From contig CABMDO010000009.1 of NCBI GenBank assembly GCA_902384935.1, forward strand, positions 74,983 to 138,982: DNA of 64,000 nt, read 5' to 3'. The notes below the pieces were generated by a model that was not told the DNA's origin, searched no databases, and saw only the letters and a program-made list of their open reading frames with translations. Within the stretch, counting starts at the first letter, position 1. Every line of letters begins with the position of its first letter. Position numbers and translations under genes: made by a program. Below, piece after piece: positions 6,088 through 62,270 of the stretch. This DNA comes from Candidatus Norongarragalina meridionalis (GTDB lineage Archaea; Micrarchaeota; Micrarchaeia; Norongarragalinales; Norongarragalinaceae).

Positions 6088-7803
6088 ATGGCAGCGCGCA
6101 TCAAATACGGCGGAAGCAGCCAGCGTGATCGCAGACTTATACGATACGGCGTTGATCTCGGCAGAAAGATAGCCGTGCGAAGGTTAATCGAACCGTCGCC
6201 AGCGCACATACTTTCGCTGGACTCGCAGGGAAGGATAATCGCCGCTTCCAAAAAGGCGGCGGAGCTTTTCGGCAGGGACTCCGCCAAACAACTCGAGGGT
6301 TTGCATTACACCGAACTTTTCCCGCACAGCCGCGACGAGCTTCTCACCGAGAGACACATCGGCGACAAGGACGGCTCCTCCACGAACTCGCTTCTCGTGA
6401 AGCGCAATTCCCCAGAAGGGCTCGTCGAATCGTACGTCCGAGTGAAACGGAACGGAAACGTTTTCAATTTGGCGTTAACCGACGTGGCGGACATGGTGAA
6501 GAGGAACCAGCTAATCACGGACATTTTCGGAATAAACAGGAAGATTAACACGGAAACGGATCTCGGCAAGGTCTTCGACGCCATAGCCCAGCATGCGGCG
6601 ACACACTTCGGGGTGCGCGCGGTTGTTACGAGATTCGACGGGGAAAAACTTGTCCCGTACGCCACGGCGGGGCCTGAGGAAACCGGAACCGGACCGATTC
6701 GGCTTTCCGACTTGGTGAAGAAGGGGCCGATACCGCTCGGCGAGGGAGTGATGGGCAGGGCTGCCGCGGAAGGAAAAACCGCCCGCGTCGAAGACGCCGA
6801 CGGCTACACCGGCGCCATCTTCCCGGGGATAGAAGACGAATACAATCTCGGCAATTCCGTCGGGGTGCCCCTGTTCGCCTATAACGGCGGCGGAAAGCGC
6901 ATACTCGTAGGTGTCATAGGGCTGTTCAAGGAAGTCGGCCAGGAAAAATTCCACGATTACCAGCTCGACCTCATGGACCACATAGCGGACAACGCGGCGA
7001 TAAAGATACGCAACGCCCAGCTGAACAAGAAGCTCGAGGAGATGGCTTACACCAACCCCGTCACGGGACTTTCCAACAGGAGGCGCTTCTTCGAGGAGCT
7101 GTCCAAGCATCTGGGCGTGGAGAGCATGGATACTGACGCGGCGAAACTGACGGAAAGAATCGGCACGGCGGGCATTCAACCGTTCACCGTCGTAAAGTTC
7201 GACGTGACGAACCTGCACGGCGCAAACGAGATAATCGGACACGACGCGGCGGACGTCCTGCTGAGGGACGTAATGGGCAAAACGCTGAGCAGCGTTTTCG
7301 GGCGGATGGGGCTCGGCAGGAAGGACGCGGTTTTGGCGCACGTCTACGGGGATGAATTCAACCTTTTGTTAAGAAATGCCGACGCGCACGTTGCCGAGGA
7401 ATTCGGAAAAACCGTGCGTGACGAGGTGGAAAGGCGCATATCCGAACAGTATCCAAAACTGAAGGATGCAGGAGTGGGAATCGACTACGCTCAAACAACT
7501 TACAATTACGCTGGCGCGAAGAACACCCCGAATGCGGTCAATCTCCTGCGATTCAAGCAACTGATAAGCGCGTACTCCAGAAAGGGCAGGCTGAAAACCA
7601 TCGGGCTCAGCGCGGGAGACGTCGTCGACATCTTGCTCAGGTATCCGGAGATACCGCTCGGAAAGGGAAAAGCGGAACGGAAAACCGCAGGCGGATGGTG
7701 GCCGCCGGGGGCTGCCCAGGAACTCGTCCGGCTCATCACGGAAGGCAAGTCTTCCAAGAACGCCATAGAAGAAATCGTAAAAAAATACCACATCAGGCGC
7801 TAG
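6088..7803 (+). CDS. PAS-GAF-GGDEF domain signalling protein with degenerate YGDEF motif
   Basis: The C-terminal ~170 aa match GGDEF: NPVTGLSNRRRFFEEL, FDVTNLHGANEIIGHDAADVLLRDV, VYGDEFNLLL, GVGIDYA. N-terminal PAS-like and GAF-like regions. Confidence 0.65.
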   Translation: MAARIKYGGSSQRDRRLIRYGVDLGRKIAVRRLIEPSPAHILSLDSQGRIIAASKKAAELFGRDSAKQLEGLHYTELFPHSRDELLTERHIGDKDGSSTNSLLVKRNSPEGLVESYVRVKRNGNVFNLALTDVADMVKRNQLITDIFGINRKINTETDLGKVFDAIAQHAATHFGVRAVVTRFDGEKLVPYATAGPEETGTGPIRLSDLVKKGPIPLGEGVMGRAAAEGKTARVEDADGYTGAIFPGIEDEYNLGNSVGVPLFAYNGGGKRILVGVIGLFKEVGQEKFHDYQLDLMDHIADNAAIKIRNAQLNKKLEEMAYTNPVTGLSNRRRFFEELSKHLGVESMDTDAAKLTERIGTAGIQPFTVVKFDVTNLHGANEIIGHDAADVLLRDVMGKTLSSVFGRMGLGRKDAVLAHVYGDEFNLLLRNADAHVAEEFGKTVRDEVERRISEQYPKLKDAGVGIDYAQTTYNYAGAKNTPNAVNLLRFKQLISAYSRKGRLKTIGLSAGDVVDILLRYPEIPLGKGKAERKTAGGWWPPGAAQELVRLITEGKSSKNAIEEIVKKYHIRR

Positions 7804-13303: not shown

Positions 13304-15979
13304 TTGCGTATTCTTCGCATGCCGCAGCTGCGCCCGGAAATAGCGCGCCTCGCGAAGGCGAAGGGCATTTCCGAGGAAACGGAGATTCAGAAGAAGGCGA
13401 TTCCGCTCATACTGGAGGGCAGGGACGTGCTCTGCGTCGCGCCGACTGGTTTCGGCAAGACGGAAGCCGCGGTGCTGCCCATTCTTTCGAAACTTCTTGA
13501 CGAACACGATGCCGGACACAAGGAGGGCATCCAGGCGCTTTACATCACGCCGCTGAAGGCGCTCAACCGCGACATGATAGAGCGGCTAACGTTCTTCTGC
13601 CACATGCTGGGCGTGCGCATCGCGGTGAGGCACGGCGACACGCCCTCTTCCGAACGCGCGAAGCAACGGGACAATCCGCCGCAGTTCCTCGTCACGACGC
13701 CCGAGACGCTGCAATCGTTGCTAGTGGCGCCGAAGCTTTGCGAGTCGCTCGTCAACGTCCGTTTCGTCGTTGTCGATGAAGTGCATGAGCTCGTGGAAAG
13801 CGAGCGCGGTTTGCAGCTCTCAATCGGGATGGAGAGATTGCGCGTCAAGGCGCCTTCGTTGCAGGTCATCGGATTAAGCGCTACGGTCGGGAGCAAGGAG
13901 GAAGTCGCGCGCTTTTTGTCGCCGAAATGCGTCGTCGTCGAAAGCGGGCTCGGGCGCGAACTGCACGTAACAGTTGAGAGCCCAGTGAAAGCGAAGGGTT
14001 TCGAGGAACTCGCGTTGAGTGTCGAGAGCAGGGCGCGACTTGAACGCGTCAAGGAACTGATAGAGACGCACCGCAGGACGCTGGTTTTCGTCAACACGCG
14101 GTACCACGCGGAATCGCTCGGCTCGCTGCTCGTGGACGCGCTCGCTGAAGGCGAAGCAGCGGTTCACCATTCGTCGCTCTCGAAGGAAGCGCGCGTCGAG
14201 ACGGAGAAGGAATTCAAGGATTCCGCGGGAAAGATACGCGGCGTGGTGTGCACGAGTTCGCTCGAATTGGGAATCGACATCGGCGAAATCGATTTGGTGG
14301 TGCAGTTCGTTTCGCCGCGGCAGGCTACCCGGCTGCTGCAGCGCGTCGGGCGCAGCGGGCATCGGAAGCACCTGATACCGAAGGGCATCGTAATCGCGGG
14401 TGACGCGCTCGACTGCATCGAAGCGGGCGTCGTCGCGCGCCGAGCGAAGAAGGGATTGCTCGAACGCGAGGGAATACGCAGGAACGCGCTCGACGTCGTC
14501 GGGCACCAAATCGCGGGCTTATGCCTCGATTTCGGGAAGATGCAGGCGGCGAAGGCATACGAAATAATCACGAAGGCGATGCCGTTCAGCTCGCTCGACT
14601 ACGATGCGTTTCTGGACGTGGTGCGCAGGACTTCGGAAGCAGGCATCATTCTTTTCGACGGACACGAGATTGCTGCTTCTCGGCGCACGCGGCTTTACTA
14701 CTACGAAAACGTTTCCACAATCCGCGACAAGAAACGGTACTTCGTCAAGGACGCGAACACGCGCAAGAACGTCGGCGTGCTCGACGAGGAATTCGTGAGC
14801 GAGTATCTTCGCGAGGGCGTCTCCTTCATCGCGCGCGGCAGGGCGTGGCGGGTTATGGCGGTAGGCGAGAAAGAGCTGGTGGTTGAGCCCACCCGCGATA
14901 TAGCGGCGGCGATTCCCGAATGGGCGGGCGAGGAAATACCCGTCGCTCCGGAGGTCGCGCAGGACGTTTCGAAGGTTTTCTCAGGCGCGGAGTTGCCGGA
15001 TTTGGACGCGGACGCGCGCAAGAAAGTAACGGCGTACGTCGAGGAGCAGAAGAAATTCTTCGTTCCCGCACCGGACGCCATTCACGTCGAAATGCGCGGC
15101 GAACTGTGCGTGATACACTGCTTCGCCGGCAACAAGGCGAACGAGGCGCTCGGGCGGCTGCTGGCAGCGGTTCTTTCGCACGGTGGAGGAAGCGCGCGCG
15201 TGAAGGCAAGCGCCTACGGCGTCGAGTTGGAGTTCGGGAAGCGCCCGGAACCGTCCCGTATAAAGGCGGCGCTCGATGATCTGAAGACGAAGGACCTTGC
15301 GAAGATTCTGGAAAAAATCATTCCGAACACGCAGCTTTTCCGTTTCAAGTTCGGCGGGGTTGCGAAGGCGTTCGGCATAATCTCGAAAAAGGCGGAGTGG
15401 AGGGATTTCTCGTTAAAGCGGCTGGCTGAAACAGAAAAGGGTTCCCCTGTTTGGAGGGAAGCGCTCGAAGAAGTGCTGTGGGACAACGCATCCGCATCCG
15501 ACGCGCAGGAAGTTTTGCGTAAATCGTCAATCGTGCTGCTCAACGAAAGGGATGCCTGGTCCCCTCTTGCTAAGGAGTTCTTCGAGCTGGGTTCGTTCGG
15601 GGATTTGATTACGCCCGCGGACGCGGCGGGCTCGAAGGTTCTGGAAGGGTTCAAGGAAACGCTGATGGCGAAACGCGCGCATCTGGAATGCGGGTTCTGC
15701 AAGCGCACGTTCTGGCGCTCGCTGAAGGACGCCGAGGAGAAAATAGTGTGCCCGTACTGCGGCTCCAACCAGGTGATGATTGAGGGGCAAAAGAAGACGA
15801 TGGCAGTAGTCGCTCACTACGGACGCCGCGGGTTGCTCGCGCTGAGCACGTTCGGCGTCGGGCCGGATACGGCGGCGCGCGTGCTTCGGAAGCAGCACGA
15901 GAGCGAGGAGGCGTTGCTGCTCGATCTTCTCGAAGCGCAGCGGAACTTCATCAGGACAAGGCAATACTGGCGGATTTAA
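13304..15979 (+). CDS. lhr: Lhr-family DEAD/DEAH-box ATP-dependent helicase with C-terminal zinc ribbon
   Basis: Walker A APTGFGKTE and DEAH box VVVDEVHEL, helicase C motifs, then a long Lhr-type C-terminal extension ending in CGFCKRTF...CPYCGS. Confidence 0.8.
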   Translation: MRILRMPQLRPEIARLAKAKGISEETEIQKKAIPLILEGRDVLCVAPTGFGKTEAAVLPILSKLLDEHDAGHKEGIQALYITPLKALNRDMIERLTFFCHMLGVRIAVRHGDTPSSERAKQRDNPPQFLVTTPETLQSLLVAPKLCESLVNVRFVVVDEVHELVESERGLQLSIGMERLRVKAPSLQVIGLSATVGSKEEVARFLSPKCVVVESGLGRELHVTVESPVKAKGFEELALSVESRARLERVKELIETHRRTLVFVNTRYHAESLGSLLVDALAEGEAAVHHSSLSKEARVETEKEFKDSAGKIRGVVCTSSLELGIDIGEIDLVVQFVSPRQATRLLQRVGRSGHRKHLIPKGIVIAGDALDCIEAGVVARRAKKGLLEREGIRRNALDVVGHQIAGLCLDFGKMQAAKAYEIITKAMPFSSLDYDAFLDVVRRTSEAGIILFDGHEIAASRRTRLYYYENVSTIRDKKRYFVKDANTRKNVGVLDEEFVSEYLREGVSFIARGRAWRVMAVGEKELVVEPTRDIAAAIPEWAGEEIPVAPEVAQDVSKVFSGAELPDLDADARKKVTAYVEEQKKFFVPAPDAIHVEMRGELCVIHCFAGNKANEALGRLLAAVLSHGGGSARVKASAYGVELEFGKRPEPSRIKAALDDLKTKDLAKILEKIIPNTQLFRFKFGGVAKAFGIISKKAEWRDFSLKRLAETEKGSPVWREALEEVLWDNASASDAQEVLRKSSIVLLNERDAWSPLAKEFFELGSFGDLITPADAAGSKVLEGFKETLMAKRAHLECGFCKRTFWRSLKDAEEKIVCPYCGSNQVMIEGQKKTMAVVAHYGRRGLLALSTFGVGPDTAARVLRKQHESEEALLLDLLEAQRNFIRTRQYWRI

Positions 15980-16004: not shown

Positions 16005-17012
16005 ATGGAAGCGAGGCGGCCGTTCGGCAAAATGGAAAAAATGCTGAACAGCCCCCAGAACGCGGTAACGAATAGGGTTGCCGAGCTCATTCTTCAAAAA
16101 AGGGGCAAACCGCTTACTGAAAACCAGTCCGCGGCGCTGAAGAAAGCAATAGCCGGGATTTTCTCCGGAGCCGCGGTGCAGGCCGAGGAATTCCACAGGA
16201 AAAGCCCCGACGATTACGCCACGTTCAACCGGCACAGGAAATTCGTAATCGAGGGGGTGCGCGGCTACCTGCGCAAGAACAGCATCGCCAGTTTAGACCG
16301 CGTGCCCGCCAAGTGGGAGCTGCCGTATGCATCGCCATGGAAGCAGCCGAAGAAAAGCGGTGACGCCGCCGTCGATAAAACCGAACCCGAGGAACCCGCC
16401 AAGCACGAACTTGAGACGCTTCCGAAACCGCCCGAACGGGACGAGTCCGTTTTCCTCGAAAAGGTGCAGGAAGCCGCCGCGAAGAGGAACCCGAAACGCG
16501 TCGGAAGAACCGCGGTTACGATGGCTGCGATCGCAGCGACTGCCATCATGGGCGGAACGAAACCGGCAACCGGACACGCGACGTCGGAGAAAATCGCAAT
16601 CGCTGCCGAACTGCCGAACGCACCCGCAGAACTTCCGAAAACCGCCGTGCCTGAAAAACTTTCGATGGAAGCGCTGGCGTTCGAAGCCAAACTTTCGGGG
16701 GCGGAAACCAAAAATCTCGTGAAAACCCAGAATCCGAACATCGCACTGGCGATTTCGAAGTACAACGCCGCAACCGAGGCGCAGGACAGGGGAGACGGGG
16801 AAACCGCCAGGGCGCTCCTGATAGAAGCCCAGATACAGGCGGAAGCTGCGGCGATGGGTAGCGGTGAAGTGGCAATGAGCGAAAAGCAGGACAGGGAGTA
16901 CAGGAAAGCGCTGAACGCCGGCAAAACCGCCGAACGCCTCGGAAGGCATTATGCCATAACCGCGGCGGACCAGATGAAATCCCTGATAGCGAAAAGGCTG
17001 TCGCGGCTATAG
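16005..17012 (+). CDS. hypothetical protein with single TM segment
   Basis: 335 aa, charged with low-complexity stretches and one hydrophobic helix (TAVTMAAIAATAIMGG). No known domain. Confidence 0.4.
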   Translation: MEARRPFGKMEKMLNSPQNAVTNRVAELILQKRGKPLTENQSAALKKAIAGIFSGAAVQAEEFHRKSPDDYATFNRHRKFVIEGVRGYLRKNSIASLDRVPAKWELPYASPWKQPKKSGDAAVDKTEPEEPAKHELETLPKPPERDESVFLEKVQEAAAKRNPKRVGRTAVTMAAIAATAIMGGTKPATGHATSEKIAIAAELPNAPAELPKTAVPEKLSMEALAFEAKLSGAETKNLVKTQNPNIALAISKYNAATEAQDRGDGETARALLIEAQIQAEAAAMGSGEVAMSEKQDREYRKALNAGKTAERLGRHYAITAADQMKSLIAKRLSRL

Positions 17013-17053: not shown

Positions 17054-18190
17054 ATGTTTTTCTTGATGAAAGTGAAACCGGGACTTCGGAAGAGTATGGA
17101 AAGGGAGTTCCGCAACGAGGACCGGAAGCTCGAACGGGCTCAAAGCTTCATGGACGAGCCGCTGACGCGCAAAAGGATCGGAGAGCTCTTGGGAAAACCC
17201 CGGGGCGCCATCGGGAACGCCGAACTTTCCCAGAAGGAGCAGGACAGGGTGCTAGACGAAATACTCACCCAAAAGAGAACCGACGCGTTCATGGAAAAGC
17301 TCGGGAGGATTGCGGGGCAGAGCCTGACGACTTCGCGCGCGTTCTACGTCAGAAGGTTCTATTACAACAAAATCAAGCCCGCGGTATACAACGCGCAGAA
17401 GGAACACGGACTCAGCCTCGAAGAAACCGAGAAACTTCTCGATGCCATTGAAAACAGGGCCGCGGAATCGCACGCCAGGCAGTGGAAAGCCGGAAGAATC
17501 CAAAGCATGGGGTGGGCGCTGCGCAACAAATTCCGCAGGAAAACTCCCGAAGAGAAGCGCGACCGCACGTACCAAAAGCTGATGGCGAAAGCGGAAAGGA
17601 AAAACAAGGGTATGATCCGCGACAGCGCTGCCGCCGACATCACCAAGGTTATTCCTAGCCAGAAAAAAGCGCCTGAACCGAAAAAGGGAAAGACGCCGGG
17701 AAGATTCCGGAGATGGGTTACCGCACTTGCCGCAGTGGCGACGCTCGGGCTGGCTTCGCCTTCGGCGCCGGTTGAACAACAGCGCGAAACGCCAAAAACC
17801 GCGATGACGACGCAGGCGAAGCCCGCCGCAGAGAAGGTTCCGGACCGGAATTTGGAAAAGGGAAAAGGCGTTGTGCGCAGGTACGAGGACCTGGACTATC
17901 AGGCGCGACGCACGAACAACCAGACGCTCAGGGACGCGATAAGAGCGTACCAGTACGGCAACTATTCGAACGCGCGGACGCTTGCGCAGCACGTCACCAA
18001 AACCGGGCACATGCAGCTGAGCGATAAGGAAAAAGCGACGCTGAGTTCGGAGGCGGCGACGGGAAGGATACTGGGCGGCGGGGCGCGCGGCTCGAACGCG
18101 GAAATATCCGAAACCGCTTCCGACGAGGACATGGCGGTTGCGGCGATGCTCGTCCAGAAAAGCACGAACGCGATGGCGGAAAAGCGCTAG
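17054..18190 (+). CDS. hypothetical protein with single TM segment
   Basis: 378 aa, highly charged (K/R/E rich) with one hydrophobic helix (WVTALAAVATLGLA). No known domain. Confidence 0.4.
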   Translation: MFFLMKVKPGLRKSMEREFRNEDRKLERAQSFMDEPLTRKRIGELLGKPRGAIGNAELSQKEQDRVLDEILTQKRTDAFMEKLGRIAGQSLTTSRAFYVRRFYYNKIKPAVYNAQKEHGLSLEETEKLLDAIENRAAESHARQWKAGRIQSMGWALRNKFRRKTPEEKRDRTYQKLMAKAERKNKGMIRDSAAADITKVIPSQKKAPEPKKGKTPGRFRRWVTALAAVATLGLASPSAPVEQQRETPKTAMTTQAKPAAEKVPDRNLEKGKGVVRRYEDLDYQARRTNNQTLRDAIRAYQYGNYSNARTLAQHVTKTGHMQLSDKEKATLSSEAATGRILGGGARGSNAEISETASDEDMAVAAMLVQKSTNAMAEKR

Positions 18191-19806: not shown

Positions 19807-20286
19807 TTAAACGTTAACAATCCGCGGCCCGCTCTTCACTGGAAGCGCTCCGCCGTTCAATGCGTCGGGATGCGCGTCGAAGTAAACGGCCGCCTCCTTA
19901 TTCAGCGGGTCCTTCGTGTTCGGGTGCTCGAGAAGTTGTTTCAGCGCCTTCACGACGCTGAGAATCGTCTGCCCTTCCGCCCAGTTGTTGATAAGCTGGA
20001 TGCACACCTTGCCGTCCTTTTCGTGGATGTTCGGATGGAAAATGGGGGTGAGCCACGTGACGTCGATTCCGCCGGCATAGGGATATTCGCGCAGCAAGTC
20101 GATTTGGACGGAATGGGCGTCCCTGCGCATGACTGATTCTCCGTTCCGGTAAAGCCCCACTCCGCGCACACTGACCAGATAACGCGTACGCTCGGCGTTT
20201 ACTTCAAAGCGCTCGCCGCTTTTCTCCATCTCGGCGTACTCGCTGTCAAGCCGACGGCGCCATATCTGCTCGGGAAGCATCGGCAT
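19807..20286 (-). CDS. ubiquitin-conjugating enzyme E2-like protein (UBC fold)
   Basis: HPNIHEKDGKVCIQLI matches the UBC active-site motif HPN(I/V)xxxGx(I/V)C(L/I)xxL with a catalytic Cys. ~159 aa. Confidence 0.7.
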   Translation of the reverse strand: MPMLPEQIWRRRLDSEYAEMEKSGERFEVNAERTRYLVSVRGVGLYRNGESVMRRDAHSVQIDLLREYPYAGGIDVTWLTPIFHPNIHEKDGKVCIQLINNWAEGQTILSVVKALKQLLEHPNTKDPLNKEAAVYFDAHPDALNGGALPVKSGPRIVNV

Positions 20287-20295
20287 TGGAAACCC

Positions 20296-20538
20296 TCAGC
20301 CGCCAGTCGGATCCGGAATCAGGAGGAGTGAATCCCCTTCCTTTATGCCGGCGTCGGAAATCGTCAGTTCGGGGTTAAGGATTTTGTTGTCCTTCGTCGC
20401 AAGAACGAACCTGTCCTTGAGCTGCAGGCTCTCGGTAAGAACTTCGAGCACCGACGAGATGGTGAACGTCGGTTCGACGGCCACCACGATTTCCTTTCCA
20501 GACGTGGAATGAGTTACTGTAACGTTGAATTCTGCCAT
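20296..20538 (-). CDS. ubiquitin-like beta-grasp modifier ending in Gly-Gly
   Basis: 80-aa protein MAEFNVTVTH...SLLLIPDPTGG with a stop immediately after the C-terminal diglycine. Confidence 0.7.
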   Translation of the reverse strand: MAEFNVTVTHSTSGKEIVVAVEPTFTISSVLEVLTESLQLKDRFVLATKDNKILNPELTISDAGIKEGDSLLLIPDPTGG

Positions 20539-20587
20539 GTGGCACCACCAAAACGGTTTAAAGAGCACGGGCAATATAACCTTTTTC

Positions 20588-20995
20588 ATGGCATCCGGAC
20601 CGCGCATCGTGAAAAAGGACAGCGACGGCTTTGTCGAGATATCGATGGGCGGACACGAGGAGCAGAAGCCGCCTGCCGCCGAGGAGAAGAAGAACGCGAT
20701 GGAGGTTGCTCCCGAAGAAGTAGGGGAACGATTCGTCCGCGGCGAACTTCAAGAGATGCACAAACCGAAGATTGTTTCCGCCCGCGACGCATCGCCGCAG
20801 GACGCCGCCAGGGCGCAGAGAGCGGCTGCGTCCCGGGACATTACTCCCGTCACGGCAGGACCGCAGAATCCGATTGTCATGACTCAGGACGAGCGCGAGA
20901 AAGCCTCGGATCTCGCGCGCAAGATTTACCAGGAAAGGGAAGCGGAGAAGGAGAAGCGCCCGGCTCACCGCTTCAGGAAACTGCTCGGACTGTGA
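20588..20995 (+). CDS. hypothetical low-complexity/disordered protein
   Basis: 135 aa rich in A/E/K/R, no domains. Divergent from the Ub-like gene and directly upstream of the JAMM gene. Confidence 0.3.
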   Translation: MASGPRIVKKDSDGFVEISMGGHEEQKPPAAEEKKNAMEVAPEEVGERFVRGELQEMHKPKIVSARDASPQDAARAQRAAASRDITPVTAGPQNPIVMTQDEREKASDLARKIYQEREAEKEKRPAHRFRKLLGL

Positions 20996-21003
20996 TATAG
21001 GAT

Positions 21004-21468
21004 ATGGCGCAGTACGACGTCTACATCGACGAAGCGGCGGTGCGCAAAGCCGAAAAGCAGTTCCGCGACGCCGCCCGCAACGGAAAAGAGGCGATGGGGC
21101 TCCTTCTGGGAAACGTGTTTCATTCGGACGGAAGCGAATTCGTTCACGCAACCGACTATGTCACCGCGCCGAACGATTCAACCGCCGTCTCCGTGCGCTT
21201 CACTAGGCAGGCGTTCTCCGAACTGAGCGGAAAAATACGCGGCAAGGGGCTGATAGTTGCCTGGGCGCACTCGCACCCGGGATACGGCTGCTTCCTTTCC
21301 TCCACGGATATGGCGACGCAACATAGGTATTTCTCCGAAAAATTTCACTTCGCGCTCGTGATGGACCCTACGCGGCGCGAAGGAAGCGCAATGCTTAAGA
21401 GGGCGTTCCGCCTGAAGGACGGGGGCTACGAAGAGGTTTCGTTCGCGGTTGTGAGGAAACGTGGCTGA
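21004..21468 (+). CDS. JAMM/MPN+ metalloprotease (Rpn11-like deubiquitinase/isopeptidase)
   Basis: JAMM motif AHSHPGYGCFLSSTD (HxHx7Sx2D) with an upstream Glu. 154 aa. Confidence 0.75.
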   Translation: MAQYDVYIDEAAVRKAEKQFRDAARNGKEAMGLLLGNVFHSDGSEFVHATDYVTAPNDSTAVSVRFTRQAFSELSGKIRGKGLIVAWAHSHPGYGCFLSSTDMATQHRYFSEKFHFALVMDPTRREGSAMLKRAFRLKDGGYEEVSFAVVRKRG

Positions 21469-22219
21469 ATCCGAGACGCAGGCAACTGCGCCTGAAAAAA
21501 AACGCAAGGCACGCAAAAAAAACCTAGAGATAACGCTGTTCGACCGCTCGGTTGCGAAGGAGGTCATGAACGGCGTTTCGAGCGTCGCCTCCCTCAAAGA
21601 AAAATTCAAGTCCGTGGACGAAACGGAGTTCGACGCACGGCTCCGCGAGCTCTCCGCCGAAGGTTATTTCGCGCTCAACGGCGACGTGGTGAAGTTCGGA
21701 ATAAAGGGATTCAACGCGTTCGCTCCCAAACCGAAGAAGGAAAAGGCGAAAGCGGTTGCGCCCGCCGTGCAGGCAAAAACAAAGGAAGAAACGCAGGTTT
21801 CCCCTGCGGCGTCCATTGCTCCCGAATCTCCCGCGCAGAAGACCGATGAGCGCATGGATCTGGACGAGGCGTTCCGCAAGGGCGCGCCGTCGGGAACAGG
21901 CGACTCTTTCTTCGCCAAGCGAAGGAAGCAGCGCGAAGGCGCCGCCGCCGAAGCAGCGGCAGCCGCACCGATACAGCCGCTGAAGAACGGCGAGGAAGGC
22001 GCGTGCGAGCTGTGCAAGGCGCCTTTCAAGATATCAACAGGCGCCGAAAACAACCCGCGCTACGGGCACTGCTTCTGCGGCGCGGCGTACCACCAGGACT
22101 GCTACGAAACTTTGGCGGCTACTGGCGCGAACTGCGTCCGATGCGGAAAGAAAATCAAGCTCACTGTTGACAGGCGCACCGAGGAAGCGATGAAGGGCGT
22201 CAAGGACGCGTTCGACTAG
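21461..22219 (+). CDS. RING-type zinc-finger protein (candidate E3 ligase) with Lys-rich disordered N-terminus
   Basis: C-terminal CELC-x15-HCFC-x4-H-x2-C-x11-CVRC cross-brace Cys/His pattern. Start overlaps the JAMM stop. Confidence 0.55.
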   Translation: MAESETQATAPEKKRKARKKNLEITLFDRSVAKEVMNGVSSVASLKEKFKSVDETEFDARLRELSAEGYFALNGDVVKFGIKGFNAFAPKPKKEKAKAVAPAVQAKTKEETQVSPAASIAPESPAQKTDERMDLDEAFRKGAPSGTGDSFFAKRRKQREGAAAEAAAAAPIQPLKNGEEGACELCKAPFKISTGAENNPRYGHCFCGAAYHQDCYETLAATGANCVRCGKKIKLTVDRRTEEAMKGVKDAFD

Positions 22220-22974
22220 GAAGGGTGTACTGGGCAACCAGCGCGTTTTGGAATGCCGTACGTTTTTGCCTCGCCTTTTAATCCGTCGTAGAAAAGGAAC
22301 CTGTTTTCCAGCGTTTCCCCCTGATTGAACAGCATCTTCAGGAATTCGTTCGCCTGAATCGCCGCGACGATTGACGTCGTCGTGGGCAGCGCGGGCATCT
22401 TCGGATCCAGGAAGTCCAGGATTTCCCCGACGCACGAATACTTCTTCCACATGAGCTTGTAGTCGCGCGTGCTGATACCGCATTCTATGCAGGCAGACGG
22501 CGCGCGAACCGTTTGCACCCTGCCGTTGAACGCCGCGGTTCCTCCGTCAATGAGCGGAACCTTGCCATAGCATTGGGCGTTCAGGTGCAGCCTTGCGCCG
22601 AGGTTGTCGAGGCAGCCGAAGGCACAGTCGAAGGAAGAGAAAACGCCCTCGTCGACGTGCTCAATATGTTTGTCAATTACCGCGATTTCTGCTGCGGGCT
22701 CCAGACGCTTCGCCTCGCGCGCTACGACATCGGCTTTCTTCTTCCCGACGTCCGCCTCGGAGAAAAAAACGCATCGGTTAAGATTCGCGGGAACGATTTC
22801 GTCGTAATCAACGAGAGTGATTTTGCGGACGCCCAACTGCAGCAGGTTCTTTACGACTTCGTTGCCGAGGGCGCCTGCGCCGACGACTAGAACCCGCGCG
22901 CCGGCGACGCTCTCCTGCTTCCATCCCGCGACGCGTTTCTGCCTGTCGTGCCTGTCGGCGTCGATTGCTTCCAC
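22216..22974 (-). CDS. E1-like ubiquitin-activating enzyme (ThiF/MoeB/UBA fold)
   Basis: DRQKRVAGWKQES, nucleotide-binding loop VLVVGAGALGNEV, ITLVDYDEIVPANLNR, and CxxC pairs (CIECG). Confidence 0.75.
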   Translation of the reverse strand: MEAIDADRHDRQKRVAGWKQESVAGARVLVVGAGALGNEVVKNLLQLGVRKITLVDYDEIVPANLNRCVFFSEADVGKKKADVVAREAKRLEPAAEIAVIDKHIEHVDEGVFSSFDCAFGCLDNLGARLHLNAQCYGKVPLIDGGTAAFNGRVQTVRAPSACIECGISTRDYKLMWKKYSCVGEILDFLDPKMPALPTTTSIVAAIQANEFLKMLFNQGETLENRFLFYDGLKGEAKTYGIPKRAGCPVHPS

Positions 22975-23734: not shown

Positions 23735-24079
23735 ATGCCGTTGCCCTCCGAGTTTACTCATATGCTCGCTGAACTTTCGGTCGCGATATTCGTACTCTGC
23801 TTCGACGCCTACGCTTACCAGCAGTACCGCAAGAGCCAGGAAACCGCCGAGCCGAAGCGCGACGTGGCGGAAGTGGCCAAGGTGCTTCGGGAAGAGGCGG
23901 ACAACGGCGGCGCATACGAGGAGACGATTGTCGGCGGCAGCGTGGAGATGCTCCGCGGCGAATTCGACGCCCTGCGCGAGGACTACGAGCGCAGGTTCGA
24001 CGATTTCGAGAGGAAGCTCGCCGGTGCGTCGGCGAAGGAACTGCCCAAGAACTACGACGGCGTCATTCTCAACGATTAG
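23735..24079 (+). CDS. hypothetical small protein with N-terminal TM helix
   Basis: 114 aa, N-terminal hydrophobic segment then an acidic coiled region. Confidence 0.35.
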   Translation: MPLPSEFTHMLAELSVAIFVLCFDAYAYQQYRKSQETAEPKRDVAEVAKVLREEADNGGAYEETIVGGSVEMLRGEFDALREDYERRFDDFERKLAGASAKELPKNYDGVILND

Positions 24080-25260
24080 AAGTCGCTCAGACGCCTCTGC
24101 CGCAAAACAGTGCTTTTCTTTTCGTACTCGATTATCGGGATGCGCAGCCGGCTCTTTATGTCCGCCAGCGCCTCCGCGAGCGTCGCGAACTTTCTCGGCG
24201 GGTTCTTGAACGCGTGCCTCACGTTCTCGCGCAGTTCCCACACGCCGACGGGCAGCTGGTATCCTTCGTAAATCTCGCGGAAAATGATGGCGCGGGCTTG
24301 GCGGTGCATGTCACGAAGGCCTTCTGCGACTCCGAACCTTCCGGCATAATAGCCGCCCCCCTCGCTCTCCGCATAGTCGCTCCTTCCCTGGTAAGGCTCG
24401 TATTCCTGCGCTATTCCGGCGCCGTCGGGCGTCCATACCGTTCCGGCCTGCCAAGCCTCGAACTGCTCGAATTCCCACGCGCCCGGAAGCAGGAGAATCT
24501 CGAAATGGTTGTACAGGTATTCGTTGGAGAAAACCGTGAATTCGGAAACCGACGGGAATTCCTTGATGTTCTTGATGTACAAATCGGCAATCATGCGATC
24601 CGCCGCAGTAATCGCCCAGCGCGTCGGCACGAGCTTCTTCTTCTCGCCGAGCAAGCCCGCGGAGAGTATTTTTTGGACATAGTAGTAGTCGAGTCCGGAG
24701 GAAAGCAACTCTGGAAGCGCGTCCCTTACTTTTATGCGTTCATTCGCGAACTCATCGACTCTCTTCGGAACAGTCGGGTTCCCAGCGAGCCGCAAGTCCT
24801 GCAGCGGCGCGGTCGGGCCCATCGGCTGCGACACGGGCGAGAAGGACATCTTGAAAGAGAGCGGCTTCGAAAAGCGCGCTTCGATGTCCACCGGCTTGGT
24901 TGACATTACCGCAGATTGTATCTCGCCGAGCATCGCGGATTGCTCGGAAACGCGCTGGCGGTGCATGCCCCGCGCGAGCGACGAACGGAAGCGGATTATA
25001 TCTTCGTAGGGAAGCCCGTACCACTCGGCAGGAGAATCGTAAAGCCGAGCGTCCATCCCCTCTTCCACGGCGATGAGCGGGCCTACCTGCACCGCAGGAT
25101 AGCCCTGCCAACCGACGAAAGCGTTTGGGGGCGAGGGTCCGAAAACCGAAGTCAGCGCCCTTCGCGCGATGGGAGCCTCGACGCGCAGCTTTTCAAGCAA
25201 GGGGCACGATGGAAGCCCGCACCAGAGGCGCCCTTTGCATGAGAGGCATTGACGCGACAT
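24076..25260 (-). CDS. nreA: archaeal DNA repair protein NreA (Nre family, DUF650/651)
   Basis: N-terminal CLSCKGRLWCGLPSCP zinc-ribbon signature of the Nre family. 394 aa. Confidence 0.65.
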   Translation of the reverse strand: MSRQCLSCKGRLWCGLPSCPLLEKLRVEAPIARRALTSVFGPSPPNAFVGWQGYPAVQVGPLIAVEEGMDARLYDSPAEWYGLPYEDIIRFRSSLARGMHRQRVSEQSAMLGEIQSAVMSTKPVDIEARFSKPLSFKMSFSPVSQPMGPTAPLQDLRLAGNPTVPKRVDEFANERIKVRDALPELLSSGLDYYYVQKILSAGLLGEKKKLVPTRWAITAADRMIADLYIKNIKEFPSVSEFTVFSNEYLYNHFEILLLPGAWEFEQFEAWQAGTVWTPDGAGIAQEYEPYQGRSDYAESEGGGYYAGRFGVAEGLRDMHRQARAIIFREIYEGYQLPVGVWELRENVRHAFKNPPRKFATLAEALADIKSRLRIPIIEYEKKSTVLRQRRLSDF

Positions 25261-27463: not shown

Positions 27464-28861
27464 CTATCGTAACTGAAGCTGCACCTCGATTACTTCCTTC
27501 GCCTTTTTCAGGAACAGCCGCTCGTTCTCCGCCGACGGCTTGAAGGAGCAGCCCGCCGCCACGTTGTGCCCGCCGCCGACGCCGCCGACTTCCGCGCCTG
27601 CCTTGCGCATCACTTCCCCCAAATCCAGCCCTTTTTCGATGAGCGCCTTGCATCCGCGGGAAGAAACCTTCGTGTTTCCCTCCTCATCGTTGCTGAAGGC
27701 TAGGATGGGTTTGTTGCGTTCGACCAAACCCGAATTGAAGTAGGCGCCTGCGACGGTTCCGATAACCGTATCGGGAATCTCTCCGCGTCCGTCTAAAAAG
27801 TAAAAGGCGCCTGCGTCGAAGGCGTGTTTGCGGGCGAAGAAAATGCCAGAGCGTATGGCGCGCCGGTGCTCGAGAAGAACTTCGTGGGCTGATTCGTACG
27901 CACCAGCTTCGCCCAGGCAGACGCTTATGCCCAACTCGGGCTTTCCGTGCCGTCCGCATGCGTTCAGAAGAGTGGAGAACTCGTATGCGTCGCGCAGTTC
28001 CGTCCCGTCCGGCTCCTTCAGGAATATGTAAACGTCTCCTATCATCGAGGCAGTTGCCTCGGCGCTTACGCCGTGCTCGTTGCAGTAGTTTATGAGCGCG
28101 GTTTGCAGTTCCTTTCTCCGCGCGGGAGGCAAATCGTAGTAGCGCACCCATTTCCCATCCTCCTTCAGTGAGATGCCGTGCTTGTGCAGGAAAAGCGCGC
28201 ACGCCTTGTCGTTGTTGGTCAAACCGGGAAGAAACGGTTCATCGCAATAAGCAAGGAACCACACCAGCGGTCGGGAAACGCGTCCGAACATCCTCAAATC
28301 GCGGGTACGCAACACTACTCCCGACTCGACCGAATCGCCGAGCATTATCGCATTCAAGCCGCGCAACCCCTCCTGATCCTGCATGTCACCTACCGCTCCG
28401 ACGATTCCCAGTTCCACGATTCGCGGGTTGTCGAGATGCTTGAAGCAGAAATACGCCGTTGACGCGGCTGACGCTTCAGTTGCGCCGTCGTATCCGAAGG
28501 CGTGCGGGTTCGCCTGAAGCAGGCCCGTCTGCGCGGACGGAGGGTGATGGTCGATTATGATTGCTTTGGGGAAATATTTCTCTACTAAATCCGCTTGCCC
28601 GGAGCCCAAATCGACGAATACGACGTTGCGCTCGGCGGGTATGGAGGAAAGCAGCTTATCGTCGACTCTTTTGATCGTTCTTACCTCGAACGCCCTGCCT
28701 TTTAGTTTCAGCGCGTTGGCTACGAGCGCGGTTGCGCTCAAACCGTCGGCGTCGTAATGCCCCATTACCAGCGGATTGTCGAGCGAAAGTATGGTGTCGC
28801 CCACTTCGCGGCAACGCTCGAAAAAGTCAGGTTCCCCGGCACCAAGCAGTTTCTGCATCAC
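27464..28861 (-). CDS. RecJ-like DHH/DHHA1 phosphoesterase (GAN/Cdc45-like nuclease)
   Basis: DHH motifs MGHYDADGLSA and IIIDHH. C-terminal DHHA1 GGGH (VGGVGGGHNVAAG). 465 aa. Confidence 0.75.
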   Translation of the reverse strand: MMQKLLGAGEPDFFERCREVGDTILSLDNPLVMGHYDADGLSATALVANALKLKGRAFEVRTIKRVDDKLLSSIPAERNVVFVDLGSGQADLVEKYFPKAIIIDHHPPSAQTGLLQANPHAFGYDGATEASAASTAYFCFKHLDNPRIVELGIVGAVGDMQDQEGLRGLNAIMLGDSVESGVVLRTRDLRMFGRVSRPLVWFLAYCDEPFLPGLTNNDKACALFLHKHGISLKEDGKWVRYYDLPPARRKELQTALINYCNEHGVSAEATASMIGDVYIFLKEPDGTELRDAYEFSTLLNACGRHGKPELGISVCLGEAGAYESAHEVLLEHRRAIRSGIFFARKHAFDAGAFYFLDGRGEIPDTVIGTVAGAYFNSGLVERNKPILAFSNDEEGNTKVSSRGCKALIEKGLDLGEVMRKAGAEVGGVGGGHNVAAGCSFKPSAENERLFLKKAKEVIEVQLQLR

Positions 28862-32423: not shown

Positions 32424-33188
32424 ATGGGCACGTCGCTAGTATTCGCATCTGGCAAGGGCGGGGTAGGCAAGACGCAGACCGTGATCAACCTCGGAACCGC
32501 GCTTGCACAGCACGGGCACAACGTCACCATAGTCGAGGGCAACCTCATCACGCCCAACCTCGCGATTTATTTCGGCATTCCGCTCCACGCGAAGACGCTC
32601 AACGACATCATCCGCGGCGACGCGAGCATAGACGAGGCGACGTACGTCCACGAGGAAACCGGACTGCTCCTCATACCCGCGAACATACAGCTGCATGCGC
32701 ACAACGACATCTCGTCGCGCGCCCTGCGCAATACAATCCGCGACATCAAGAAGCACACGGATACCGTAATCGTCGATTGCGTTTCGAGCCTCGGCGACGA
32801 GGTAAGCGAAATCATAAAGTCCGCGGACAAGGCGGTAATAGTCACGAATCCCGAGCTTCCCGCAATGGCGGACGCCTACAAGACGATCCGCCTTACAAGG
32901 CACCTCGGAACGCAGGTCGCGGGCGTCGTCGTGACGCGCACCGGGCGCTTCAAGGGCGAACTGTCGGACGACGAAATCAACACGCTTCTCGAAGGCACGC
33001 AGGTTATCGGGAAAATCCCCGAGGACCATCGCGTGCCCATGGCGTCGTCGCGTTCGGAACCCGTCGTGCTCGCATACCCGCACTCCCGCGCGTCGCGCGC
33101 CTACAAGAGGCTCGCGTCGTCGATGCTCGGAAAAGAATACAGCGAGTTCGGGTTCGCGGAAGACGTGCTCAATAGCCTGCAGCCCTGA
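32424..33188 (+). CDS. minD: MinD/ParA-family P-loop ATPase
   Basis: Deviant Walker A SGKGGVGKT. 254 aa, MinD-like throughout. Confidence 0.75.
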   Translation: MGTSLVFASGKGGVGKTQTVINLGTALAQHGHNVTIVEGNLITPNLAIYFGIPLHAKTLNDIIRGDASIDEATYVHEETGLLLIPANIQLHAHNDISSRALRNTIRDIKKHTDTVIVDCVSSLGDEVSEIIKSADKAVIVTNPELPAMADAYKTIRLTRHLGTQVAGVVVTRTGRFKGELSDDEINTLLEGTQVIGKIPEDHRVPMASSRSEPVVLAYPHSRASRAYKRLASSMLGKEYSEFGFAEDVLNSLQP

Positions 33189-34752
33189 ATGCGCGCCGCA
33201 TTTTCGCAAGCACTTCTCCCGGGCTAGCGCCTAACACGAATATGGTCGCCTCTTTCCCGAACGCGCCCTTGTCGTATATAACGTCGGAAACGCCGCCGTG
33301 TTTTTTCACCGCCTGCAAGGCAAGCCAGGGCATCGACGCGCCTTCCGCAGACGCGACGGACTCGGGCTCCTCCTCGCTCCGCGATACTTCGGCGACGCTC
33401 ATGTTCGAACGCACGAACGCATCGAGCAACTGAGGAGAATATGCCACGTCAAGAGCCGAGCGCACGCCTTGCTTGGAAAGCGCTATGACTACGCCCGCGA
33501 CGTGGTGCGACGCTCCGTAAGCGGCGGCTCCGCGGAGCACGCGATTGATCCCGCGCCTCATCCGTCCCTCTATTGCGGCGACTTCCTTCGGTGACTTCGC
33601 TCCGGGTTTCGCGAAAACGAGATTCGACCCGATTTCGGGTATGCTTTCAAGAAAGCCGGCAGTGGCGCAAAGCGCAGCCGCAACATCTTCCACTTCGGTA
33701 AGCAGCGCATCGTTCCCTCCGGCCTGCTTCTTCAGATACTCCTCGAACGCTATCCAGAACGGGTCCGTGCCGGGATGCAGCGTCCTTTTTCCGTCAACGA
33801 ACAGGCCGCGCTTCTTCATTACTCGGCCTACGACGCTCGCCGGAATGTCCGCTTTTTTCAGCGCCTTTACGGTTGCCTCGCCTTCTCCCTTCCGCACGGT
33901 CGCAAGAAGCGTTCCTTCGCTGATGGCGATGAACGGATCGATTCCGAAGCATTCGCACGTTTTCGCAACCGCGTCCTGGACTATTACTTCTTCCTTTTCG
34001 ACGTCCATTCCGTATTTCAGGCACAGCTCGGACAATCCGCCCCATACTCCGCACTCCGTAGCGTCGTGCATCGCGGTTGCGGCGCCTGTTTTCGCCACCA
34101 CGGCTGCATCCTTCACGACGCTCATCTGGTAGAAAACCGACTGCGCCTTTTTCACGAGCTGTTTTCCGCAGCTGGCTTCGAGGAATTCGGGAAACTGGAC
34201 GGACATCAATCCGGTCGTCTCTATCGCCGGGCCTTTCGTCACTATTACTTCGTCGCCGGGGCGCATCGCCGAACGATCTACGAGTTTTTTCCGCGAACCG
34301 ACGCCGAACATCACGCCTCCGCCGACCATCGGATAGTTGCACCCCGCGTATCGTGCGGTATGCCCCGTAACAACGTTTACGCCCAGCTTCTTGCACTCGG
34401 AATCAACCGTTCGCCAGATGCGCTTCAGCACGTCGGCGGTTGTTTCGGGCGGAAGATTCAGGTCAACCGCGAAATAGCGCGGCGGGATTCCGCTTACTGC
34501 GACGTCGGAAGCGAGTATATGCACCGCGAACCACGCCGCCCGCTCCCAGCCAAGCGACGGGGAGATGAAGAACGGATCCGCGGAAAGCACAACCGCGTTG
34601 TTCCCGCATTCGAACGCCCCGAAATCCACGCCGTTTGTGGGCGGAACTATCACCGACTTGTCCTTGGCGCCGAGATGCGGATAAATCACCTTTCGGAAGA
34701 ATTCCGGCGGGATTTTCCCCAAAGAAGGAAGCTCGTCCATGCTAAACACCAA
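33169..34752 (-). CDS. AIR-synthase-related (PurM-like) protein fused to ThiN-like thiamine-phosphate synthase domain
   Basis: N-terminal PurM/HypE-like fold and a C-terminal ~180 aa resembling ThiN. Adjacent to thiL and thiC. Confidence 0.45.
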   Translation of the reverse strand: MVFSMDELPSLGKIPPEFFRKVIYPHLGAKDKSVIVPPTNGVDFGAFECGNNAVVLSADPFFISPSLGWERAAWFAVHILASDVAVSGIPPRYFAVDLNLPPETTADVLKRIWRTVDSECKKLGVNVVTGHTARYAGCNYPMVGGGVMFGVGSRKKLVDRSAMRPGDEVIVTKGPAIETTGLMSVQFPEFLEASCGKQLVKKAQSVFYQMSVVKDAAVVAKTGAATAMHDATECGVWGGLSELCLKYGMDVEKEEVIVQDAVAKTCECFGIDPFIAISEGTLLATVRKGEGEATVKALKKADIPASVVGRVMKKRGLFVDGKRTLHPGTDPFWIAFEEYLKKQAGGNDALLTEVEDVAAALCATAGFLESIPEIGSNLVFAKPGAKSPKEVAAIEGRMRRGINRVLRGAAAYGASHHVAGVVIALSKQGVRSALDVAYSPQLLDAFVRSNMSVAEVSRSEEEPESVASAEGASMPWLALQAVKKHGGVSDVIYDKGAFGKEATIFVLGASPGEVLAKMRRAFRAAGY

Positions 34753-61962: not shown

Positions 61963-62240
61963 GGGGACGGCGGGTTGCACGGCTGTCGGTATCCTCCCGT
62001 CAAACGGAGGAGGCTGAGGAAGTTCCGCCCACCATTTGCGAGAGCAAAGTGTTAGATGCGCAAGCATCCCCGTCTAAGACGGGAGCGTGGAACAGAAACG
62101 AACCGCGCCGAGAGCAGGATGACGAACAGGACGTTTCTCGGAATGCGGATGAAACGCGCCGCGCTTGGTGCAAGTGCTTTACGCACGCTAAGTCGAATGC
62201 CGTGGACAACAGAAGGCGGGCTACGGACTCGCCGTCCCAC
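61963..62240 (+). ncRNA. rnpB: probable RNase P RNA (archaeal type A)
   Basis: ~278 nt between CDSs. Ends pair (GGGGACGGCG/CGCCGTCCC, P1), P3-like hairpin CCUCCCgucaaaCGGAGG. AGGAAGUUCCGCCCACC resembles the CR-I/P4 5' strand AGGAAAGUCCGGGCUCC. ACAGAAGGCGGGCUACGG resembles the P4 3' strand ACAGAAnnCGGCUUA. CCGCCC/GGCGGG can form P4. Confidence 0.55.
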
Positions 62241-62270
62241 TCATATTTTAATAGCGGAAGCGTTCTTTCT

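Follow-up and report, generated by a model that had tools for sequence, protein, structure and literature searches.

Results

A compact six-gene cluster for putative ubiquitin-like conjugation

We analysed a 64,000-nucleotide stretch of DNA from Candidatus Norongarragalina meridionalis (contig CABMDO010000009.1, positions 74,983 to 138,982; hereafter the window), an archaeon of the Micrarchaeia within DPANN that is represented by a metagenome-assembled genome of 0.93 Mb with a guanine-cytosine (GC) content of 57.5% (PMC8561730). An original prediction, made from the bare sequence, had claimed that six contiguous open reading frames (ORFs) at 19807-22974 encode every step of a ubiquitin cycle. 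All six were found where the prediction placed them, tightly packed into 3.2 kb, and their positions match the predicted gene order of E2 and modifier, then X, JAMM protease and RING-like protein, then E1. They fall into three transcription units: a ubiquitin-like modifier (Ubl) followed by a ubiquitin-conjugating enzyme (E2) on the minus strand; ORF X, a JAMM metalloprotease and a RING-like finger protein, the putative ubiquitin ligase (E3), on the plus strand; and a ubiquitin-activating enzyme (E1) on the minus strand. With good confidence, though short of certainty, we read the cluster as a chromosomal, housekeeping-type ubiquitin-like conjugation module of this archaeon; we infer all chemical steps of the cascade from homology.

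From stop to start codon, 9 base pairs (bp) separate Ubl from E2 and 8 bp separate X from the JAMM gene, while the JAMM stop and the start of the finger gene overlap by 8 bp and the finger gene overlaps the convergent E1 gene by 4 bp. These spacings fit an operon-like organisation. The start codons of Ubl and X face away from each other across a 49-bp intergenic spacer (20539..20587) with two A/T-rich TATA-like elements, TTTAAAG and AATATAA. Orthologous loci have Ubl/X spacers of 47-128 bp, also with two A/T-rich boxes, and we presume the spacer to be a bidirectional promoter region. The GC content of the block equals that of its surroundings. Each of the six proteins is 100% identical to a deposited Ca. 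Norongarragalina meridionalis protein. In the deposited record the E2 is named 'Ubiquitin-conjugating enzyme' (VVB67161.1), the JAMM protein 'JAB1/Mov34/MPN/PAD-1 ubiquitin protease' and the E1 'SAMP-activating enzyme E1', and Ubl, X (VVB67164.1) and the finger protein are each an 'Uncharacterised protein'.

The modifier and its activating enzyme

The Ubl (20296-20538, minus strand) had been described as an 80-residue beta-grasp protein with Gly-Gly directly before the stop codon, and both its sequence, which closes with P-D-P-T-G-G, and its predicted ubiquitin fold agree with this. An AlphaFold2 model reached a predicted local distance difference test score (pLDDT) of 90.7. When searched with Foldseek, it matched Caldiarchaeum ubiquitin first (template modelling score 0.86), followed by SUMO, ubiquitin and NEDD8; identity to ubiquitin in the structural alignment was 28-30%. 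Pfam returned near-threshold matches only, to Rad60-SLD, YukD and ubiquitin. We collected homologs in 120 clusters, 68-100% identical, every one of which contains P[DE]P[TS]GG. In 95 of them Gly-Gly is followed directly by the stop codon; the other 25 carry a C-terminal extension of 1-38 residues, so that processing is needed there. The Ubl of the window is predicted to be produced already mature, with a free Gly-Gly end. Its lysines K15, K41 and K52 are conserved in at least 93% of the clusters. A longer, 103-residue version from an upstream ATG was rejected, since orthologs and the deposited record use the shorter start.

The E1 (22216-22974, minus strand) is a single ThiF-type adenylation domain of 252 amino acids (aa), which the Pfam ThiF model matches at 4.2e-49 over residues 19-248. 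Its nucleotide-binding loop GAGALGNE lies at aa 32-39 and NLNRC at aa 64-68. C162, C165, C247 and H250, by their pattern a MoeB-like zinc site, are invariant among 17 orthologs, as is C181 in a short crossover loop, which would form the thioester with the Ubl. The ThiF/UBA fold and nucleotide-binding loop of the original prediction are thus present, and its 'CxxC pairs' are not: there is one CxxC (C162, C165) plus C247-x2-H250. Neither a Cys domain nor a C-terminal ubiquitin-fold domain (UFD) is found, and orthologs measure 248-295 aa. Among proteins of solved structure, Uba1 (1e-26) and SAE2 (1e-25) rank ahead of E. coli MoeB (2.4e-21).

These two proteins bear most directly on the alternative of a sulfur-carrier or SAMP-type system, in which the Gly-Gly protein would be MoaD/ThiS/SAMP-like, the E1 of MoeB/ThiF/UbaA type, and any conjugation independent of an E2. 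The deposited name of the E1 points that way, as does the label 'molybdopterin converting factor small subunit' that some sources attach to Ubl homologs, and the E1 is indeed MoeB-like in having a single domain with a zinc site and a loop cysteine. Thiamine genes are also found at a distance of 10-13 kb, one for a ThiL-like AIR-synthase domain joined to ThiN and one for ThiC (33169-34752, minus strand, and 35722-36909, plus strand). ThiC, ThiN and ThiL do not use ThiS, however, and they are not near the block in other genomes; the immediate neighbours of the cluster are PurH, DTD2, Nre and Lhr, with no molybdenum cofactor or thiazole genes flanking it. The E1 scores 95-101 bits against NCBIfam models for MoeB, ThiF and UbaA/SAMP-E1 with cut-offs of 266-450 (98 bits for SAMP-E1, cut-off 450). 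The Ubl scores 13.9 bits against Pfam ThiS (cut-off 22.5) and 13.4 against NCBIfam MoaD (cut-off 94), and neither ThiS nor MoaD appeared among the top 50 Foldseek matches of its model, whose fold is that of ubiquitin, SUMO and NEDD8. A catalytic E2, a JAMM protease and a RING-like protein are, moreover, invariably linked to the pair. The original prediction had singled out a MoeB-type E1 and a sulfur carrier as the findings that would overturn it, and both checks came out in its favour; we regard a sulfur-carrier system as extremely improbable.

A catalytic E2 with a conserved C-terminal tail

The E2 (19807-20286, minus strand; 159 aa, containing FHPNIHEKDGKVCIQLI) has the claimed UBC fold, matching Pfam UQ_con at 6.8e-18 (65 bits, cut-off 27) with H84-P85-N86 and the catalytic Cys95 in place. 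Across 36 orthologs P69-Y70 of loop 4, H84-P85-N86, C95, W102 and P122-N123 are invariant. We discarded the candidate explanation that the protein is a non-catalytic ubiquitin E2 variant (UEV), which the original prediction had itself named as a check, because HPN and Cys95 are invariant and the UEV model scores only 15.6 bits (cut-off 27); the best solved relatives are catalytic eukaryotic E2s, UBE2H (2.8e-11) ahead of Pex4 and UBE2A/B. In the Caldiarchaeum E2 a loop-4 Pro-Tyr pair is required for contact with the E3 (PMC5654768), and this pair corresponds to the invariant P69-Y70 of the Micrarchaeota E2s.

The tail of the protein contains a motif, G-P-R-I-V (aa 153-157; 19816..19830, minus strand), with the family consensus [KRG]-P-[RK]-[IV]-[IV]. 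It closes every ortholog (36/36), the proline being invariant and [RK][IV][IV] conserved.

A JAMM protease and a winged-helix finger protein

The predicted JAMM/MPN+ metalloprotease (21004-21468, plus strand; 154 aa, containing AHSHPGYGCFLSSTD) was recovered with a Pfam JAB match of 3.7e-11 and the full catalytic motif E...HxH-x7-S-x2-D (E29, H89-x-H91, S99, D102), which is conserved in 24 orthologs. It is Rpn11-like, its solved relatives being Rpn11 (2.6e-13), CSN5 (8.5e-12) and the Caldiarchaeum Rpn11 homolog (CsRpn11, 2.9e-8); yeast Rpn11 scores 53.7 bits and CsRpn11 37.3. As a side observation, the JAMM gene of another Micrarchaeota locus, L011 (2649-4382), is interrupted by an intein, as are those of L012 and L039. 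The 577-residue product of L011 carries Pfam Intein_splicing and LAGLIDADG_3, and the intein sits within the catalytic HxH (...GWCH/CLPPSE...IISHN/SHPSYGCF...). In L011 the E1 gene is not a direct neighbour, and GGQAR extends the Ubl.

The finger protein (21461-22219, plus strand; 252 aa) consists of an N-terminal winged helix (about aa 20-90), a disordered linker rich in Lys, Ala and Pro, a C4HC3 cross-brace finger and a C-terminal helix. The original prediction had described a RING-like C4HC3 finger with a Lys-rich tail. Its eight-ligand spacing is present (C-x2-C-x18-C-x-C-x4-H-x2-C-x10-C-x2-C), with C182, C185, C204, C206, H211, C214, C225 and C228, and a Leu between the first two cysteines, invariant among 23 orthologs; its membership of the RING family is weakly supported, and for the 'Lys-rich tail' a more fitting description is Lys-rich stretches flanking the winged helix, together with a conserved C-terminal helix. 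The winged-helix domain itself had escaped that description. The protein model is confident over the winged helix (20-90; pLDDT about 94), lower over the finger (50-77) and disordered in the linker. No Pfam model matched at threshold, nor did any NCBIfam or PADLOC family.

We consider the protein a putative RING-type E3 with a winged helix of DNA-binding type. The conjugation system could also be real and this protein a DNA-binding transcription factor, for example a regulator of the cluster, with conjugation proceeding without an E3 or with one encoded elsewhere. Several results favour a RING over this reading. Foldseek matches of the finger, taken from a moderate-confidence model, were headed by RING E3s throughout (TRIM32, RNF4, RNF24, HRD1 and Pirh2, E 0.025-0.25), and in the PDB its profile found only RING-H2 E3s (such as AMFR and Pirh2, E 0.1-0.3). 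Below threshold, Prok-RING_1 (17/17 members) and zf-RING_2 (15/17) were the most consistent Pfam matches. The gene, whose translation is coupled to that of JAMM, always lies inside the block, and small RING proteins are encoded in the Caldiarchaeum and Asgard clusters (PMC5654768, PMC6043591). On this evidence a transcription factor seems unlikely to us, while keeping an appreciable chance of being right.

ORF X shares a motif with the E2 tail

The sixth gene, X, was present as claimed, a divergent and disordered ORF of 135 aa (20588-20995, plus strand). It had no match in Pfam, NCBIfam or PADLOC, and a HMMER search with X alone returned only X itself from 1.84 billion representative proteins; its orthologs were therefore defined by position and motifs. 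Related loci hold a gene at the same position and on the same strand, encoding 69-330 aa rich in E, K, P, Q, A and S. Near the N-terminus these proteins have a motif P-[RKH]-[IV]-[IVL], often with a second copy, along with DGF-x-E-[IV] in some, [RK]-D-[IV]-[LT]-P, and a basic-hydrophobic C-terminus such as HRFRKLLGL, KGFLSRLKGAFFK or GFFGKLKRMMGLR. In X of the window, P[RK][IV][IVL] occupies aa 5-8 and 60-63, DGFVEI aa 13-18, RDITP aa 83-87 and HRFRKLLGL aa 127-135. Twenty unique positional orthologs include 15 with the P-motif, nine of them with two copies, and 17 with the basic-hydrophobic tail. X is a conserved positional ortholog even though its sequence can hardly be aligned, and we rejected a spurious ORF on the grounds of this conserved position and the motifs. 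Versions of 156 and 163 aa were set aside, as orthologs and the deposited record use shorter starts. The pattern of the C-terminus suggests that X may be targeted to the membrane.

P-[RK]-[IV]-[IVL] is common to X and every E2 tail. It occurs 16 times in the 83,100 six-frame residues of the window, the E2 tail accounting for one of these matches and X for two; at this background of 1.9e-4 per residue, about 0.03 copies would be expected in X. The window E2 and X also share the unusual variant SGPRIV.

Charge offers a further indication of what the E2 tail may do. Outside Micrarchaeota the nearest relatives of the cluster are Asgard-type operons with the gene order JAMM, E1, E2, which contain the next E2 family (30-35% identical). 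In Micrarchaeota the median net charge is -7 for the Ubl (n=120) and +3 for the E2 tail (n=36), and in the Asgard-type family it is 0 (n=25) and -7 (n=30), respectively; the net charges of E1 and JAMM move between the two lineages in a non-complementary direction. Since tail and Ubl charges are opposed in both lineages, the tail may dock on the Ubl, and the complementarity weakly suggests such a contact.

The block is widespread in Micrarchaeota

About 20 metagenome loci, with E2s 45-66% identical to that of the window, contain the six-gene block with gene order and orientation unchanged. Given its recurrence in so many independent loci, the cluster is not a product of chance. On long contigs of other Micrarchaeota the arrangement is again E1, then X, JAMM and finger gene reading towards it, then Ubl and E2 reading away. 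The claim that such operons are rare in archaea does not hold within Micrarchaeota, where they are widespread. Relatives of the window E2 are encoded in more than 500 metagenome stretches, a lower bound; a scan of a genome collection with the E1 gave one short contig only. The flanks of the block are shared in one locus (L005: DTD2, Nre, Lhr) and different in two others (L006 and L007). Across the same 14 genomes, median identity to the window proteins is 72.5% for Ubl, 61.7% for E1, 53.5% for E2, 48.4% for JAMM, 35.5% for the finger protein and 18.1% for X.

Two further groups of loci were observed. In L040, L044, L047 and L050, on contigs of up to 1.2 Mb, an E2 45-50% identical to that of the window lies alone, and within 6 kb there is no gene for Ubl, JAMM or the finger protein; a finger homolog (P0124) lies on the same 1.2-Mb contig as L044, indicating that the block is split in these genomes. 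A third archaeal E2 group (L083, L087, L089 and L092) is found in loci with E1 at a distance from adjacent Ubl, E2 and JAMM. E2s of this third group have GP[RK]IL, as in L083-L089, or PKVV close to the C-terminus, so that Micrarchaeota are not alone in having the basic tail motif.

Distribution also bears on whether the genes could form a defence island against viruses, of the Bil, Bub or CBASS Cap2/Cap3 type, that attaches the Ubl to viral proteins. Bacterial E1/E2/JAB/Ubl operons are reported to act in defence (PMC10557695). The E1 half matches PADLOC E1-E2 and BilD models (1e-8 to 1e-15), JAMM weakly matches JAB models, and there are weak NCBIfam matches to the 6A-MBL cap2_3 model. These PADLOC matches are to generic adenylation and JAB domains only, though, with none for E2, Ubl, X or the finger protein; E1 and E2 are separate genes, and no effector gene is found among the neighbours. 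The block spans Micrarchaeota rather than being patchy, its neighbours are partly conserved housekeeping genes, its Ubl is extremely conserved and its GC content is that of the surroundings. A defence role is therefore, in our judgement, very unlikely.

In the searchable literature we found no description of a ubiquitin system in Micrarchaeota or DPANN; subscription-only papers lay outside that search, and a prior mention is possible. The word ubiquitin is absent from the genome paper (PMC8561730) and from a 2025 comparative study of 163 Micrarchaeota genomes, and Micrarchaeota, ARMAN and DPANN all go unmentioned in the Hennell James supplement. Complete E1/E2/RING/Ub/JAMM sets have been attributed to Aigarchaeota (Caldiarchaeum) and Asgard archaea, partial toolkits to some Crenarchaeota and one euryarchaeote, and related operons to some bacteria; the archaeal operons have served as evidence about the eukaryotic system's origin (PMC6043591, PMC5654768, PMC4327156, PMC4571572).

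Genomic surroundings

In the window the cluster is surrounded by PurH, DTD2, Nre, Lhr, a RecJ-like protein and an AAA ATPase. The Lhr-type helicase lies at 13304-15979 (plus strand), Nre at 24076-25260 (minus strand) and the RecJ/GAN-like DHH protein at 27464-28861 (minus strand). Lhr and Nre adjoin the block in L005 too, and Lhr does so in L011. The Lhr, Nre and RecJ-like neighbours, taken with the winged helix of the putative E3, hint at a link to DNA repair or chromatin, but may also be plain synteny.

The interval from the Lhr helicase to PurH encodes two Lys/Ala/Glu-rich proteins side by side, 335 and 378 aa long (16005-17012 and 17054-18190, both plus strand), neither of which has a Pfam family; similar unannotated genes adjoin PurH in L002. 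A PAS-GAF-GGDEF protein is encoded at 6088-7803 (plus strand), with a partial GGDEF match (2e-9); for an archaeon whose genome is reduced, a domain of diguanylate-cyclase type is unusual. An archaeal RNase P RNA (61967-62235, plus strand, 121 bits) coincides in part with the 3' end of an ORF of 640 aa that is read from the other strand (62000-63922, minus strand), and in the overlap this ORF is probably not coding. We rejected eukaryotic contamination as a source of the cluster, given its operon organisation, the archaeal RNase P RNA in the window and the presence of the block in many assemblies.

Discussion

A possible conjugation cascade

The cascade would run as follows. The 80-aa Ubl would be made ready to use, with its Gly-Gly end free. 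The minimal E1, probably a MoeB-like homodimer, would adenylate Gly80 and load the Ubl as a thioester on Cys181, from which it would be handed to Cys95 of the E2. The winged-helix/C4HC3 protein, acting as a RING-type E3, would then stimulate transfer to target lysines; these targets may be DNA- or chromatin-associated, because the putative E3 carries a MarR-like winged helix with basic flanks. Finally, the Rpn11-like JAMM would remove the Ubl and, in relatives with an extended Ubl, also mature the precursor.

As the E1 has no UFD to recruit the E2, the conserved tail P-[RK]-[IV]-[IV] of the E2 might supply the docking contact instead, most likely as a beta-strand on the acidic Ubl in the manner of a SUMO-interacting motif (SIM). 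X, which would be co-transcribed with JAMM and E3, could be a disordered protein acting as adaptor, receptor or preferred substrate through the same docking site, perhaps with a tether to the membrane. A more far-reaching proposal, and one that we on balance doubt, extends this wiring to both lineages: Micrarchaeota, and Asgard archaea in charge-inverted form, would run a UFD-less cascade with a minimal, MoeB-sized E1, in which the E2-tail motif (basic P-[RK]-[IV]-[IV] or acidic-IIII-DD) docks SIM-like on the Ubl for recruitment and positioning; the same motif would mark X as a lineage-specific, membrane-tethered disordered hub coupling deubiquitinase (DUB) and E3; and the motif-based wiring would be ancestral, predating the UFD. 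If this were true, a complete E1-E2-E3-DUB system would exist in DPANN, outside the Asgard and TACK groups on which current discussion centres.

Several points weigh against the interpretation as a whole or in its parts. Lacking a Cys domain and a UFD, the E1 cannot pass its Ubl to the E2 exactly as in eukaryotes or Caldiarchaeum. The assignment of the finger to the RING family is weak, drawing on profile and fold matches that are weak but consistent; its C4HC3 spacing fits PHD-type fingers as well, and a winged helix with a zinc finger could simply make a transcription factor. In L040, L044 and L047 the E2 stands apart from the other genes of the block. The hydrophobic moments of the X C-terminus (0.45-0.76) do not stand out from the highest values in the rest of the protein, and the charge argument covers two lineages only.

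An apparently complete and strongly conserved set throughout Micrarchaeota, DPANN archaea with genomes of about 1 Mb, widens the known range of such systems in archaea and makes one ask whether it is an ancient inheritance or was transferred between Asgard-like and DPANN lineages. That six genes are kept in a genome of 0.93 Mb suggests that the pathway matters to the organism. With a mature Ubl of 80 aa, an E1 of 252 aa, an E2 of 159 aa and a DUB of 154 aa, this is about the smallest system imaginable and is suited to reconstitution, and the motif shared by the E2 tail and X provides a testable hypothesis for how a UFD-less E1 hands over to its E2.

Comparison with known systems

A close archaeal counterpart is the ubiquitin/E1/E2/small RING/Rpn11 cluster of Caldiarchaeum subterraneum (Aigarchaeota; Nunoura 2011, PMC3082918; Hennell James 2017, PMC5654768; Fuchs 2018, PMC6043591), whose ubiquitin (CsUb) has been conjugated in vitro (PMC5654768). 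The two systems share a ubiquitin-fold Gly-Gly modifier, a UBC-fold E2 with HPN, Cys and Pro-Tyr, a finger protein (of putative RING type in the window) and an Rpn11-like JAMM, all of them clustered. Both E2s also have a C-terminal tail; that of the window is conserved, and that of Caldiarchaeum is flexible and auto-ubiquitylated on a lysine. They differ in that the Caldiarchaeum E1 has a Cys domain and a UFD, whereas that of the window is a single 252-aa adenylation domain; CsUb is a precursor with nine extra residues, whereas the window Ubl ends at Gly-Gly; and the Caldiarchaeum finger is a small RING protein, whereas the putative E3 of the window has a winged helix and a long linker. No gene like X has been reported in Caldiarchaeum, and gene order and strand arrangement are different.

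By bit score, the window E2 (67-86 bits), E1 (about 174-190 bits) and JAMM (48-65 bits) are closer to the Asgard-type operons than to any solved eukaryotic protein; one cluster of the Asgard-type E2 family is named 'E2 [Promethearchaeota archaeon]'. Both systems have a small E1 (about 294 aa in the Asgard type), a Ubl ending in Gly-Gly and an E2 with a conserved hydrophobic C-terminal tail. In the Asgard-type loci (L053-L082, for example L056 4471-6861 and L068 4560-6916), JAMM, E1 and E2 are followed by a convergent Ubl of 85-91 aa ending in ...LWAKV[IV]GG, and phmmer searches with the window proteins detected neither an X nor a winged-helix/finger gene next to these operons. The Asgard-type tail is acidic, (D/E)n-[IV]4-DD with IIII or VIIV at its core (for example EDDDDDIIIIDD), and the Ubl neutral, whereas the Micrarchaeota tail is basic and the Ubl strongly acidic. 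An acidic run followed by four Ile/Val and DD is the textbook form of a SIM.

In the eukaryotic ubiquitin, SUMO and NEDD8 systems, the fold and catalytic motifs of every enzyme match those of the window, and, as in eukaryotes, conservation is highest for the modifier and lowest for E3 and adaptor. The window differs in having a single copy of each component, an E1 without Cys domain or UFD, and genes organised as operons, and the module is not known to have a proteasome-lid context. The UFM1 system (UBA5/UFC1) likewise uses a minimal homodimeric E1 without these domains, and there recruitment of Ubl and E2 depends on short linear motifs within disordered tails, the logic proposed above for the window E2 tail. 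The UFM1 motifs sit on the E1 tail, in contrast to the E2 tail and X here, and UFC1 lacks the HPN that the window E2 has; the two systems have no sequence relationship beyond the superfamily.

The Haloferax SAMP/UbaA/HvJAMM1 and Sulfolobus Urm1 systems also have a single-domain E1, a beta-grasp modifier ending in Gly-Gly and a JAMM that removes it, but they lack an E2 and a RING protein and serve as sulfur carriers as well. The bacterial Ub/E1/E2/RING/JAB operons (Prok-RING families) and Bil and CBASS systems share the component list of the window; their E2s are about 35-38% identical to the window E2 (E 1e-4 to 1e-8), and the operons are unidirectional, often lie on mobile or defence islands and have no X. 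One distant relative, L010, is an operon of YukD, E1, an unassigned gene, E2, JAB and Prok-RING_1. Relative to the known archaeal operons, what is new in the Micrarchaeota cluster is its minimal E1, its winged-helix/RING-like putative E3 and a sixth gene, X, that shares a motif with the E2 tail.

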